DNA of 20,407 nucleotides. Source: Eledone cirrhosa (Eukaryota). The notes beneath the pieces were generated by a model. The model was given only the letters and a program-made list of their open reading frames with translations, was not told the origin of the DNA and did not search any database. The position numbers were made by a program, and so were the translations under genes. Shown here one piece after another: positions 145-17,914 of the stretch. The stretch spans positions 1 through 20,407 of the forward strand of contig CAXHJY010000064.1 in NCBI GenBank assembly GCA_964016885.1. Direction: 5' to 3'. Each line of letters opens with the position of its first letter. The first letter of the stretch is position 1.

Positions 145-195
145 AGTTTCAGAAGATCCCGTTAAGGGTGAAAGCAGCGATTCTTTGCTTAAACT
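145..195 (+). ncRNA. Degenerate type I hammerhead ribozyme fold in a ~170 bp island (49-216) between (TA)n tracts
   Basis: agttt-CAGAAGA-t-ccc/gttaa/ggg-t-GAAA-gca..tgc-TT-aaact. Stem I agttt/aaact, stem II ccc/ggg, stem III Agca/tgcT. The core deviates from CUGANGA at U4 (A), so it is probably inactive. Confidence 0.55.
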
Positions 196-887
196 TTAAT
201 CTGTTATTTTAATAAATATATATATATATATATATATATATCAATCTCTATCGCTCTCTCTATATATATATATATGTATACACACACGCACATATGTATA
301 AATAAATAAATATTATATATATATATATATATATATATATGTAACGTATTTATTTATTTTGTGCATCAAATATATCTTACGTGTTTTTGAAGTGAACAAT
401 AGCATCGTAATGCCATCATTCCTAGGCGTCATAATTCATTTAAGGACATGTTCTGTTTTTTAAATTTCATGATTCATAACTAAATGATGACATTTTAATT
501 TTATAAAATTATGAAAAAATAATCTGTTTATTTTTGAATTTTTATAAAACAAAAAACTTATTGCATTCCATTTAGTAACCTAAAGGAAACTGACATTTTA
601 TCAATATAGGGTCAAGCGACTTAAACAGATGACATTGAAATTGTATCTAAATTGAGTAGCTGTCACTTATGAACATATCGGTTTAAACCAGCGTACAACA
701 TTACTGAGATTAGATTTCTCAAGTATTTGAATAATGGAAATTGTGTAGTTTATAAAAGTATTTATATTAAGACGAACCATTGAAGGAATTAACTCTGAGA
801 TGCCTTCTTCATTAAGAACGTATATTCCTCGATGTTTGTGTTAATAGATCGTGGTAAAATTGAATGTGATGTAGTCATTTTTACTAA

Positions 888-997
888 AATAATTGTTTCT
901 ACGTTTGGCACAAGGCCAGCAATTACCCAGTGCATTACTGGTACTTTATTTTATCGACCCCGTAAGGATGAAAGGCAAAGTTAACCTCGACGGGAAT
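888..997 (-). mobile_element. tRNA-derived SINE, 5'-truncated copy (Nin/Deu-domain-like core)
   Basis: Near-identical to 1175-1282 and the reverse complement of 3460-3563. Core on the minus strand reads ctttgcctttcatccttacggggtcgataaaataaagtaccag. Confidence 0.85.
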
Positions 998-1169
998 GTT
1001 GCCTATGCAAGCTTGTTAAGTAACCCCTAAATGCATGTAAGGAGATAGCAAAAACTGAAGAAATACAAGTTCGCCAATTCAAATATTTATTGTATATATA
1101 CTAAAATGCAATTCGTTAAAAATTGTAGTATTATAGAAATTACTTTAATAATTAATTGTTTCTGCTTCA

Positions 1170-1352
1170 ATAATTAATTGTTTCTACTTTAGGCACAAGG
1201 CCAGCAATTACCCAGTGCATTACTGGTACTTTATTTTATTGACCCCGTAAGGATGAAAGGCAAAGTCAACCTCGGCGGGATTTGAACTCAGATCATAAAG
1301 GGACGTAACTATGCGGGAAAGCATGGCGTCCGACCCTCTACCGATACTGACA
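1170..1352 (-). mobile_element. tRNA-derived SINE, near full length (Nin/Deu-domain-like core)
   Basis: Minus strand has an A-box-like tgtcagtatcgg, a B-box gagttcaaatcc and then the conserved core. aataattaat on both sides (1169-1178, 1352-1361) is a possible target-site duplication. Confidence 0.85.
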
Positions 1353-1656
1353 ATAATTAATGTTATTTAGTCATACTGCTGTTTTGCAATTTTCAAGAAT
1401 ATCTTGCTAATGCAGTTTCATATGATACAGTGGGGGAAAGTTAATGATTAAGTTTGGTACAGAAGGCCAGCGTGACAACTAAGGTTGTGTTTTGCTTGTC
1501 TGGTCAAGAAATGAAATAGGAGACGTTAAGTTAGCTGTCGGTACTAAATTGGCGAAGCCTTAAAACACTATGATTAAGTAGACATTACTAAAATAAAATT
1601 GACGCGTGTGATTTTCTGCGAGCGTGTGTGCATGCATATATATATATATTTATATA

Positions 1657-2252
1657 TAGGAAAATGTTTAAGACCCCGACGGCAGAGCTCCAGCCGTTTC
1701 GACGGCTAATTCTGGACTAAATGAAAATTTATCCTGGTATTTAAATAGCCGAGCTTCTCAAGGGGTAATTCCATACATGGTCAAAGTGATTGTCAAGAGT
1801 CAGTAGTAATTCTCTGATTGCAAATTAGTAGGGGAGATGGTGGCTAAACCTGCCAGTAGGAGAAAAAGGGGGAGGGGTTGGAGTAGACCCAATCATGCGT
1901 TGGTAGTGCCAGCTACAGCTGGGCATGAGGTCAAAGAAGATACTGGGGAGGGGGGGGGGGTGAAGTCGGAACGGTAGGTAGAACAATGAGGGGTAAAAAT
2001 ATATATATGAAAGAAAAAATACTGAGAGTGATTCAAAGCGAATAAGTGTAAAGAAAAAAAAAAAAAAAAAAAGAAGCTCAGCTATTTAAATACCAGGATA
2101 CATTTTCATTTAGTCCAGAATTAGCCGTCGAAACGGCTTGAGCTCAGCCGTCGGGGTCTTACTGGTTCCTATTACCCACCCTACTACACTAAGTATTGAG
2201 TACTTTGGTGCGTTATGGTCCACCTGGTTCCTTACCACATTTCCTTCGTTAT
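1657..2252 (-). mobile_element. Fold-back insertion of a PLE-like HHR repeat (family A): 3' UTR plus inverted partial terminal repeat
   Basis: 1670-1758 is the reverse complement of 2072-2160 with few mismatches. Flanked by (TA)n on both sides. Complete HHR in the left arm. Further copies at 2703-2904, 3253-3307 and 4711-4866. Confidence 0.75.
1673..1766 (-). ncRNA. Type I hammerhead ribozyme with U3-A8 variant core
   Basis: Minus strand: acccc-UUGAGAA-g-ct-cggcta-(37 nt)-tagccg-t-c-GAAA-cggc-tggagctct-gccg-UC-ggggt. Stem I acccc/ggggt, stem II cggcta/tagccg closed by G-C, stem III Acggc/gccgU. GUC cleavage triplet at 1680-1678. Confidence 0.75.
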
Positions 2253-2270
2253 ATATATATATATATATAT

Positions 2271-15803: not shown

Positions 15804-15872
15804 TATTTTATTATGCGCATTTCAAAAACAAATATCATCATGCAATAACATTTGTTTTCATCAGATAAAATA
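15804..15872 (-). ncRNA. Type I hammerhead ribozyme with palindromic stem III
   Basis: Minus strand: tattttat-CUGAUGA-aaacaaatgttatt-gcat-gatgatatttgttttt-GAAA-t-gcgc-a-UA-ataaaata. Perfect 8 bp stem I and ATGCGCAT palindrome. Confidence 0.85.
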
Positions 15873-16242
15873 GGACATGATATGAAGGTTAAAAAACACT
15901 TGTGGATAGTGCAGTTTTAAATCAACATATGAAAAGTAGTTTTAGATTGATGTGTGATATTGGGGAAAAAAAAAAAAAAATGTTGAGGGGGGTGGTGGGG
16001 GGGAAGGATGAAAAAGAGGAGGATATGAGAGTAAAAAGTGGAGGGGGAGGAGTATAGTGAGGAAGGATGAGATAGGAGGAGAGATGGGTGATAGAGAGAG
16101 AGAGAAATAGCTTTTATAACTGAGAAAAATATATTGTTTTACATAGAGAGGTTAAAAAAACCGTTGGAAGATAATGTATAAATTAAAAGAAATTGAAAAT
16201 TAACGAAGAGAAAAATAATGTAAAGTTAAGGTTTGTATATTG

Positions 16243-16410
16243 AAGGGTTTAATAATATGTGCGATGAAAAGAAATTGTTAATATGTATTAAGAATAATAT
16301 TTAAGGGTTTAATAATATGTGCGATGGAAAGAAAATGTTAATATGTATTAAGAATAATATTTAAGGGTTTAATAATATGTACGATGGAAAGAAAATGTTG
16401 ATATGTATTA
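16243..16410. repeat. 60 bp tandem repeat, ~2.8 copies, within the PLE 3' UTR
   Basis: aagggtttaataatatgtgcgatg(a/g)aaagaaa(t/a)tgttaatatgtattaagaataatattt repeats with period 60. Confidence 0.95.
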
Positions 16411-16788
16411 TTAAAAAAACAGAAGTAATGTAAGTAAGGATATATTGTGAGATGAGCATGAATAAGTTAGATGAAAAGGAGAAAAAAATAATGAATAGAG
16501 GATGAATAATCTAACGTCAAAAAATGTTTATGTTTACGAAGGATTTTTTCAAGGTGATATGAAGTAAGAATATGGTGTATTGTGTAATAATTGTTTCTAT
16601 GTTATGCACAATGAGAAAAGGTACAGATAAGGGGTTAGAAATTAGGAGTGATGTAGAATATAATAAATATAATAAATAACTTTGAAACAAGGTAGAAAGA
16701 TGGGTATATTTTTAAAGAAGTATATATATATATATATATATATATGTGCCTTTGAGAAAAGGATTCTGAATTGATAAAGTTTATCATA

Positions 16789-17758
16789 TTAGCTGTATAC
16801 TTTATGGAAAGTTCTGTGGAATTTATGCAAGCAGATAGAAAACAAGTCAGTGTGTCTATTTATTATAGAATCTAAATGAGAAATAATGGTAAATTTTTCA
16901 TTTAGACAGAGATTGCAAGTCTTGGATAGAGAACTGTTCAAGTATGCAGAAGCAGAGGAAACCTTTTTCCAAGAGATGTTATATTTAATATTTTTGTCTT
17001 TCAAGGACCATATGAGTTCTGAGAGAGCCGTGTTGGTTCTTTTAAGTTTATATTTAAAAGACGAATGATGATTATAAAGACGAGCTTTAAAGGAGGCGGA
17101 AGTGGAGCCAAAATAGGTGAAGGAATTGGTGTCAGTTATAACTTTACATTCGTAAATTAAGTTTTTATCAAGACAATGGTTGTTGAAAGGACATTTATTT
17201 TTAGCAGGGCAATTGCAATTGCGATTAGAGAGATTATTAACGAGTGACCTAGTGTTATCTATAGAAGGAATTGGATTGGAGAAGTTATTGGCGATAGGAA
17301 TAATAGTTTCTTGATTTAGAATGGGATTAAGAACATTTAGCGAAGTTGTGTTTGACGTTGTATTTGGGTTTGCAGAAATTAGCCTAGAGTTTATAATTAC
17401 GTCGGGAGTACTATTACTATTACTATTATTATGATATTCAGTGTTGGAAGGAAGAGATTTAGTATTTAGTATTTTATTGTTGTGTTTAGAGATAATGTTG
17501 GAAATGTTGGAGGATGTCGAATAGGAAAATTTTATAGTGTGTTTGTTGAATATTTTACTATAGATATGAGGGAGGGAAGCATTTATTTAAGGCACTAAAG
17601 AATAATTTAGGAATATTATTATTAATAGAGATGGAGAAAGGAGCATTATACCAGATTATGTTTTTGTATCTAGGTCTTTTATTAAAGTTATTGGAATGAT
17701 CATGATTAATTATTCTACTGTAAGATCTTCTAGAATTTGTTTCTTTATTATATTTGAT
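16789..17758 (-). pseudogene. PLE ORF C-terminus (RT thumb/linker and GIY-YIG endonuclease) with one frameshift near 17565
   Basis: Manual translation: RYKNIIWYNAPFS..FFSALNKCFPP / HIYSKIFNKHTIKFSYSTSSNISNIISKHNNKIL-(long N/S-rich linker)-CNCPAKNKCPFNNHCLDKNLIYECKV..TYFGST..FKARLYNH..TALSELIW..CNLCLNEK..INRHTDLFSICLH. The ORF track shows only the last 71 aa. Confidence 0.88.
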
Positions 17759-17843
17759 TTTATCAATCTAAAACTACTTTTTATATCTTGATTTAAAACT
17801 GCACTATCCACAAGTGTTTTTTAACCTTCATATCATGTCCTCC

Positions 17844-17914
17844 TATTTTATCTGATGAAAACACAAATGTTATTGCATGATGATATTTGTTTTTGAAATG
17901 CTCATAATAAAATA
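17844..17914 (+). ncRNA. Hammerhead ribozyme in the inverted arm
   Basis: tattttat-CTGATGA-aaacacaaatgttatt-gcat-gatgatatttgttttt-GAAA-t-gctc-a-TA-ataaaata. The loop III palindrome is broken by one substitution. Confidence 0.8.

Follow-up and report, generated by a model that had tools for sequence, protein, structure and literature searches.

Hammerhead motifs in probable terminal repeats of truncated Penelope-like elements bounded by TA microsatellites in Eledone cirrhosa

Penelope-like elements (PLEs) carry hammerhead ribozymes in their pseudo-long terminal repeats (pseudo-LTRs), and these hammerheads are described as having low activity and being used as dimers (Cervera and de la Pena 2014, PMC4209133). 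For the Hydra clade of PLEs (Craig et al. 2021, PMC8557442), File S1 of that paper lists (TA)n for 26 of 27 families, as well as for cephalopod Naiads. Here we report a computational analysis of a 20,407-nucleotide (nt) stretch of Eledone cirrhosa DNA (assembly GCA_964016885.1, contig CAXHJY010000064.1; hereafter, the window, meaning the whole of this stretch), in which a sequence-only reading had noticed eight hammerhead folds in elements embedded in (TA)n. The positions and strands of all eight motifs proved correct. The window contains the folds, two endonuclease (EN) remnants, inverted arms, tails and TA boundaries. The motifs are very probably hammerhead folds of type I that lie in terminal repeats of 5′-truncated PLEs. 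These PLEs likely represent five or six families, and their own EN and reverse transcriptase (RT) likely placed them in TA repeats.

The statements on described systems, here and below, draw on the relevant passages of the cited papers and supplements. The marks of the Hydra clade include a CxCX5C linker, an EN without the CCHH motif, CxxC and CxH, the RWK and DKT motifs and a divergent RT4 (PMC8557442), and an inverted arm with a tail on one inverted repeat has already been described (PMC8557442, PMC3846280). A PLE of the green anole cuts both DNA strands in vitro, uses two start sites that define its tail and shows protein-assisted hammerhead cleavage; its hammerhead is not needed for insertion in vitro (PMC11167929). 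Non-LTR retrozymes, which are defined by tandem units, have been suggested to originate in PLE pseudo-LTRs (Cervera and de la Pena 2020, PMC7229834; 10.64898/2026.07.22.740005), and a repeat annotation of Octopus vulgaris reports 31 recently active Penelope-like families in passages that do not mention ribozymes (PMC13282606). Pseudo-LTR hammerheads, inverted truncated copies, one-sided tails, the (TA)n preference and an octopus Hydra family are all published, and the shared (TA)n target, offered earlier as an inference, is likewise published and not new.

Hammerhead motifs in the window

A strict type I hammerhead descriptor was passed by five of the eight motifs (cores 9309−, 11702−, 13407+, 15864− and 17852+, the sign giving the strand), and core 1761− also passed in a permissive scan that added the U3–A8 covariant core published for PLE hammerheads and allowed bulges. 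Among intact cores, the permissive scan returned eight sites: six claimed motifs (1673−, 9260−, 11654−, 13398+, 15804− and 17844+) with scores of 39.5–56.5, the unclaimed site 19983− (28.5), which we treated as background, and 10095− (28.0), the core of motif 10057−. In 3,713 shuffles, with microsatellites kept in place and local dinucleotides preserved, scores of at least 35 occurred at a mean of 0.019 per shuffle (maximum 2), as against six in the window, so that six motifs lie far above shuffled sequence, one of the comparisons by which the sequence-only reading had proposed to be judged. Scores of at least 28, the level of 10095−, were matched in 14% of shuffled windows, and the score of 24 given to 150+ (the core of motif 145+) as a defective motif was reached in roughly 27–51% of 2,581 shuffles. 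Thus, six of the eight cores stand beyond chance, whereas 10057− and 145+ have background scores and need other support.

The catalytic boxes CUGANGA (or UUGANAA), GAAA and UH are intact in type I order in seven of the eight motifs, 145+ having A at position 4. Helices I, II and III are able to form in register, clearly so in six of the eight, with a helix III of 2–4 base pairs (bp). Among intact motifs, strongly self-pairing helix III occurs only in 15804, where helix III and its loop form a perfect 8-nt palindrome, and in a family that we call B, of which 1673− is the only complete hammerhead (core UUGAGAA, long loop II, palindromic helix III).

A Hydra alignment yielded 78 related loci from metagenome contigs, of which 51 with at least 250 nt downstream were kept and 27 dropped; a sense hammerhead lies within 450 nt downstream in 30 of the 51, and an antisense one in a single locus. 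Model 1 was built from 25 of 26 paired-type Hydra-clade hammerheads of other organisms, with no window sequence and with one dropped as retrozyme-like. In these 25 hammerheads, 95.5% of the cells are paired and 12 of the 15 pairs show changes on both sides, as against 0 of 500 shuffles. The model finds exactly five sites in the window (9257−, 13393+, 11651−, 17838+ and 15798−; E values of 9e-6 to 0.003), and its next match is a fragment (E 0.96). Furthermore, 9260 and 15804/17844 have a helix I almost identical to the one in three related loci (L015, L017 and L035), with similar flanks. Since five motifs fall under one Hydra model and some have helix I and flanks in common, the families are not all unrelated.

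The two motifs with background scores differ in architecture. Motif 10057− has an extra base after A9, a G10.1–C11.1 pair, a perfect 6-bp helix II and a weak helix I of 2–3 pairs beside the core, and the motif follows the EN stop of its unit in sense orientation at a distance of about 270 nt; extra base, G10.1–C11.1, 6-bp helix II and a short helix I as in D. virilis constitute the published minimal pattern (PMC4209133). With good confidence, we regard 10095− as a genuine hammerhead motif. Motif 145+ has a 5-bp helix I and a 3-bp helix II above a U·U pair. A U·U pair below helix II and U at position 17 are found in 14 and 10, respectively, of the 25 Hydra families in File S2 of PMC8557442 (counted by eye) and are thus common enough that only the U4-to-A change counts as a defect. 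We consider 150+ somewhat more likely than not to be genuine, as a probable decayed hammerhead motif; model 2, built independently from 15 U·U-type hammerheads, ranks it fourth (E 0.34, not significant).

Further observations concern the motifs and their surroundings. At 7150–7190 (+), a hairpin stands behind a near-core heptamer whose second box is not intact; this candidate ninth motif was recovered by neither the descriptor scan nor either model and was rejected. In the family B hammerhead (1678–1761, −), the 5′ strand of helix II can pair with the helix III palindrome in a rival fold, and the hammerhead fold lies 5 kcal/mol above the lowest-energy competing fold, which may represent a switch. 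The family B motif had no match in viral contigs. TTGATC is conserved 12–30 nt behind the cleavage site (15775–15781, 17937–17942 and 9250–9256, and also in L015, L017 and L035), and the short end of the unit at 15774–18040 stops just after it. Hammerheads of other types lie near related Hydra-type loci (L004 at 1000; L014 at 2995 and 3180; L023 at 109; L047 at 1074 and 1271), and clustering of unlike hammerheads therefore occurs in other organisms too.

Insertion units, coding remnants and sequencing depth

Self-comparison resolves the eight motifs into six insertions, two of which hold inverted pairs (Table 1): 11654 and 13398 are 92.7% identical, and 15804 and 17844 are 94.5% identical. The earlier description of about six unrelated families with completely different stems is overstated, given these inverted copies, the common model match of five motifs and the helix I and flanks that 9260 has in common with 15804/17844. 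Family B comprises three inverted units and one tail fragment; its inverted arm at 2072–2249 lacks the first half of the core, and the copy at 2073 retains the last five core letters. Solo ends lie at 49–205, 3256–3305 and 9218–9372, and the TA-bounded island 49–205, which holds 145+, has no second copy within the window. In the unit 9806–11500, the inverted copy 10928–11500 has lost the segment 10010–10223 with the hammerhead.

Table 1 Insertion units, coding remnants and hammerhead motifs in the window
Feature	Position	Strand	Details
Decayed type I hammerhead, Hydra U·U type, probable	145–195	+	U4 changed to A; site after 190
Family B inverted unit	1661–2249		Long arm left with short end; inverted arm 2072–2249 plus ~80-nt tail
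Type I hammerhead, U3–A8 covariant core	1673–1766	−	Score 43.5; GUC site after 1678
Family B inverted unit	2705–2901		3′ half of hammerhead in each arm; left arm tailed, right arm short
Tail-only fragment related to family B (~80% alike)	3256–3305	−	
Family B unit	4712–4864	+	Few bases of inverted short end, then hammerhead 3′ half and tail
Solo end related to putative Hydra unit 15774–18040	9218–9372	−	Holds the 9259–9321 hammerhead
Type I hammerhead	9259–9321	−	Helix I 12 bp, palindromic helix III 2 bp; site after 9271; Hydra model E 9e-6
5′-truncated PLE, putatively Neptune/Nematis-type	9806–11500	−	43-nt tail 9806–9848; inverted copy 10928–11500
Minimal PLE-type hammerhead	10055–10102	−	Site after 10062; boxes intact
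C-terminal GIY-YIG EN remnant	10361–10930	−	CX4CxxC linker, CCHH motif; inverted partial copy 10929–11207 (+)
Inverted unit, no detectable coding remnant	11523–13490		Tailed arm 11523–11887 (tail ~90 nt), short-ended arm to 13490
Type I hammerhead, Hydra-like architecture	11654–11711	−	Bulged helix I; GUU site after 11665; E 4e-5
Inverted copy of the 11654 hammerhead	13398–13455	+	Site after 13444; E 3e-5
5′-truncated PLE, putatively Hydra clade	15774–18040	−	Inverted end 17762–18040 bears ~90-nt tail
Type I hammerhead	15804–15872	−	8-bp helix I, long helix II; site after 15812; E 0.003
Open reading frame remnant, putatively Hydra clade	16789–17779	−	RT thumb end (frameshift near 17565), CxCX5C linker, GIY-YIG EN
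Inverted copy of the 15804 hammerhead	17844–17914	+	Site after 17906; E 2e-4

All six inverted units, which represent four families and at least two clades, combine an inverted arm with a one-sided tail, so that each pairs a tailed with a short end, one arm being 43–90 nt longer. In alignments, the short arm of five of the six stops at letters that belong to the element itself (TAT to TATATA), and the sixth has the same short end as the family member at 4712. If each side took its end at random, the probability of six mixed pairs would not exceed 1 in 64, with three of the six belonging to one family; the pairing holds in seven of seven when a hammerhead-less palindrome is counted. This TA-bounded near-palindrome (2272–2660; arms 82% alike) has neither a hammerhead nor a detectable open reading frame (ORF), and an extra 82 nt on one arm gives it the same tailed/short asymmetry.

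Every unit is bounded by TA on both sides, and the embedding in (TA)n claimed earlier stands for the elements; it does not extend to the motifs, which lie 64–290 nt from the nearest TA run, no nearer than 17–52% of all positions. For the TA association, only the unit ends, and not the motif positions, are informative. The units touch 15 of 24 merged TA arrays, 3 of the 24 lie inside units and 6 touch none. Together the units occupy 7,231 of 20,407 bases (35% of a window chosen for its motifs, with boundaries set by us and 49–205 included); these counts, taken within the window, are the measure obtained for the large share of microsatellite-flanked DNA that the sequence-only reading had suggested for the genome. 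Tandem duplications occur in untranslated parts of two units (16237–16410, 60 bp × 2.9; 12520–12682, 80 bp × 2), and a (TA)12 array (16721–16744) lies inside the unit 15774–18040.

Two units retain coding remnants, in both of which the EN forms the C-terminal end of the ORF and a hammerhead follows. The frame 16789–17586 (−) matches five ORFs of 471–712 amino acids (aa) with 36–44% identity (E values down to 7e-27). Its EN has the CxCX5C linker, lacks CCHH and carries CxxC and CxH next to the conserved E and N, and among its relatives RWK/RWR and DKT are present in P0002–P0005. On the testable marks (EN, 3′ hammerhead and (TA)n insertion), the unit 15774–18040 appears to be a Hydra-clade PLE. 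An in-frame Asn/Ser-rich insert of about 70 aa (17235–17440, −), absent from the five relatives, separates the RT thumb from the CxCX5C linker; Asn-rich inserts are known in rotifer PLEs (PMC3846280).

The frame 10361–10930 (−) carries a CX4CxxC linker and CCHH. At E ≤ 0.001 it has matches to 2,049 cluster representatives, 141 of the best 150 having such a linker, and it also resembles two long ORFs in which RT-like motifs lie upstream and a CX-CxxC linker is present; a near-length search with this EN gave no match. The CCHH motif and CX2-5CxxC linker suggest that the unit 9806–11500 is of Neptune/Nematis type, two clades that are not separable here as no RT survives. A Naiad PLE, with an N-terminal EN and no canonical hammerhead, was ruled out, since both ENs are C-terminal with a hammerhead behind. 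Profile and tblastn searches found no coding remnants in family B, 49–205, 9218–9372, 11523–13490 or 2272–2660, and the tails had no match to the N-termini of long relatives. Besides 15774–18040 and 9806–11500, the four remaining hammerhead-bearing units are probably PLE ends; two of these, 9218–9372 and 11523–13490, may belong to the Hydra clade, which they resemble in hammerheads and flanks.

Sequencing contigs were matched to 9806–11790; the runs represent at most two samples of one study and possibly include the source of the window. Each of three large runs gave 12,746–14,626 contigs, and a small run 953. Summed depth is about 0.3–1.2 million over 9806–10140, mostly 0.1–0.5 million over the EN and 0.005–0.025 million over the 11654 family, many single contigs having depths of 4–20. 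Two families are thus repeated, as depth, which is not copy number, demonstrates. The 9806–11500 family is highly repeated and deepest at its 3′ (hammerhead) end, as truncation on the 5′ side predicts. Of the 15 joints listed (91 in all), 7 link points in 9834–10625 to 11431–11449 (19 nt), hinting that other copies start the short arm 55–70 nt before the end, on joint sides of only 21–32 letters.

Apart from these units, the window is AT-rich, microsatellite-rich animal DNA. It contains, at 3693–4685 (+), an RT (Pfam RVT_1, E 6e-12) that we presume to be RTE-like. It is the RT of a 5′-truncated non-LTR retrotransposon with TA arrays at both borders, and TA borders are therefore not exclusive to PLEs in the window. 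Self-comparison also revealed four copies of a repeat resembling short interspersed nuclear elements (SINEs) (887–995, 1172–1310, 3428–3564 and 5639–5719), which we take to be an octopus SINE; a paper search with its motif found no match.

Competing explanations and a proposed route of insertion

The PLE pseudo-LTR reading, which the sequence-only reading had named as one known carrier of such motifs, is supported by the EN remnants in two units, the inverted-copy-plus-tail anatomy elsewhere and the match of five motifs to the Hydra model. Several results weigh against it. An Rfam search across the window returned 83 matches at E ≤ 10, none to a hammerhead family and all of them repeat-driven microRNA and small nucleolar RNA matches below cut-offs, so that the Rfam check suggested earlier came out negative; Rfam scans of two small regions also found no hammerhead, the coverage of minimal PLE hammerheads in Rfam not having been checked. 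Pfam assigned a PLE domain to none of the window ORFs and had no match for either EN ORF, and among 12 relatives it gave a weak GIY-YIG match in only 1. The RT core survives nowhere in the window, leaving clades to be assigned from the EN end alone, and four of the six hammerhead-bearing units have no coding remnant, so that their PLE status comes from anatomy, plus the model match for two. No full-length copy with direct pseudo-LTRs around a complete RT–EN ORF is present in the window, which lowers the PLE membership of the ORF-less units and is expected for truncated copies. The lowest-energy monomer folds contain helix III in none of the eight motifs and lack helix I in 145+ and 10057−; the missing helix III would be in line with dimer use or decay. 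Family B and 145+ have no significant match to either model, the sense hammerhead is absent in 21 of the 51 related loci, and the covariation counts are partly circular, since the relatives' hammerheads were selected by a pairing rule.

That all motifs arose by chance in AT-rich, repeat-rich DNA is hardly conceivable: the missing Rfam match and the modest folding z-scores of six motifs (+0.8 to −2.3) would fit, but the six matches against a mean of 0.019 and the independent model match refute it for six motifs, and a hammerhead recurs in the same position and strand in 30 of the 51 relatives. A narrower version, in which 145+ and 10057− alone are chance or non-functional look-alikes, leaving six motifs in four units, is unlikely yet carries real weight. 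Their permissive scores of 24 and 28 are at the level of the background site (28.5), helix I is predicted for neither, and 10057− has no model match while 145+ reaches E 0.34 with model 2. Against this, 10057− follows, in sense, the end of the EN frame in a repeated PLE and conforms to the minimal pattern of the literature, and among the 40 variant rows listed, of 104 in all, the only one inside it falls in loop II; 145+ fits the U·U type of the Hydra families; and tighter descriptors based on published architectures gave 0 of 8,095 shuffles for each, although they were written post hoc and overstate the case.

The ORF-less units (49–205, family B, 9218–9372 and 11523–13490) might instead be dispersed monomers of non-autonomous non-LTR retrozymes spread via self-cleaved circular RNAs, an origin that their missing coding remnants would permit, that has a parallel in reported dispersed vertebrate retrozyme monomers (10.64898/2026.07.22.740005) and that is eased by the stable helix III and GUC site of family B, with which it could work as a monomer. 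We consider this very unlikely, because a repeat search and self-comparison found no head-to-tail repeat holding a hammerhead in the window, family B and 11523–13490 show the inverted, tailed layout of the two EN-bearing units, and the Hydra PLE model recovers 9260 and 11654/13398; the retrozyme affinity suggested earlier thus finds no unit built as a head-to-tail repeat. It is also improbable, if less so, that the TA arrays grew after insertion, from short TA seeds at element ends or by repair of the site. The overlap of short ends with the TA run by 3–6 of their own letters in five of the six units, and the 3 of 24 arrays inside elements, point that way, whereas tailed ends also adjoin long TA runs with little such overlap, the array 11501–11522 is common to two unrelated units, 6 of 24 arrays have no contact with such elements, and a (TA)n insertion preference extends across the Hydra clade (PMC8557442).

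Under the PLE reading, a full-length element would be transcribed from repeat to repeat, its GIY-YIG EN would cut both (TA)n strands, and each cut end would prime reverse transcription near the 3′ repeat. Both copies would stop early and be joined head to head, leaving two outward 3′ ends, one of them tailed. As copying would begin at the 3′ end, the hammerhead-bearing end would most often be left behind, hence the density of motifs. For the hammerheads to trim the precursor RNA, they would need either to act as dimers, through the palindromic helix III, or to be helped by the element's protein, and most copies in the window are probably inactive relics.

More tentatively, and with considerable doubt, we suggest that inverted insertion could be an obligatory pair of unlike priming events and that such ends might border a large share of the TA microsatellites of this genome. 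One cut (TA)n strand would anneal to a few TA letters in the element, giving the short end, and the other would start about 45–90 nt further out without pairing, giving the tailed end.

Comparison with described elements

The unit 15774–18040 shares with Hydra-clade PLEs, including Hydra-1_Obim of Octopus bimaculoides, the C-terminal GIY-YIG EN without CCHH and the CxCX5C, CxxC and CxH motifs, together with the 3′-end hammerhead, the (TA)n boundaries and an inverted 5′-truncated copy (PMC8557442). Hydra-clade hammerheads have the same tiny palindromic helix III and often U17 and a U·U pair under helix II (PMC8557442). However, the Asn/Ser-rich linker insert sets the Hydra-type unit apart, tails here measure 77–90 nt as compared with the 30–40 nt described (PMC8557442), and 15804/17844 have A10.1–U11.1 and U15.2–A16.2 where relatives have G–C and C–G. 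By reading, the window hammerheads are unlike all 25 families in File S2 of PMC8557442, and searches with three motifs found no match there. The minimal metazoan PLE hammerheads (PMC4209133) show the same short palindromic helix III, extra base after A9 and U3–A8 variant, and their PLEs the same opposite-strand pairs, many unlike families per genome and mostly solo truncated copies. In contrast, the helix III palindrome of family B is long and its loop II spans about 40 nt, and the inverted pairs here are 1.7–2.0 kb apart rather than 100–700 bp.

Like the unit 9806–11500, the Neptune and Nematis clades combine a C-terminal EN that carries CCHH with a CX2-5CxxC linker, and a microsatellite bias like that of this unit is stated for Neptune (PMC8557442); unlike them, the unit retains no RT, and its inverted copy has no hammerhead. 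Non-LTR retrozymes share type I hammerheads and short non-coding repeats (PMC7229834; 10.64898/2026.07.22.740005), but consist of head-to-tail repeats of 150–450 bp, each with a hammerhead, whereas the window units are inverted and tailed, with no tandem arrangement. The anole Poseidon element PAc (Frangieh et al. 2024, PMC11167929) has the same two alternative ends defining the tail, AT-rich targets and a hammerhead near the end. PAc starts copying at RNA sites non-homologous to the cut DNA and does so alike on the two strands (PMC11167929), whereas each inverted unit here has one of the two ends on either side, the short one overlapping target letters.

Literature searches revealed no paper describing these families, some of which could be listed in the supplements of 10.64898/2026.07.22.740005, PMC4209133, PMC11167929, PMC3846280, PMC7229834 and PMC13282606; a count of tailed/short pairing or of TA overlap was not found in the passages covered. 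The biology itself is known, and the novelty lies in the families: five or six undescribed PLE families with hammerheads, whose ends fill a third of the window. PLE ends of this kind would escape Rfam scans and protein-based repeat annotation. The formation of head-to-head insertions has been named as an open task (PMC8557442), and the strict pairing of tailed with short ends, together with TA overlap at the short end only, bears on how PLEs insert head to head.

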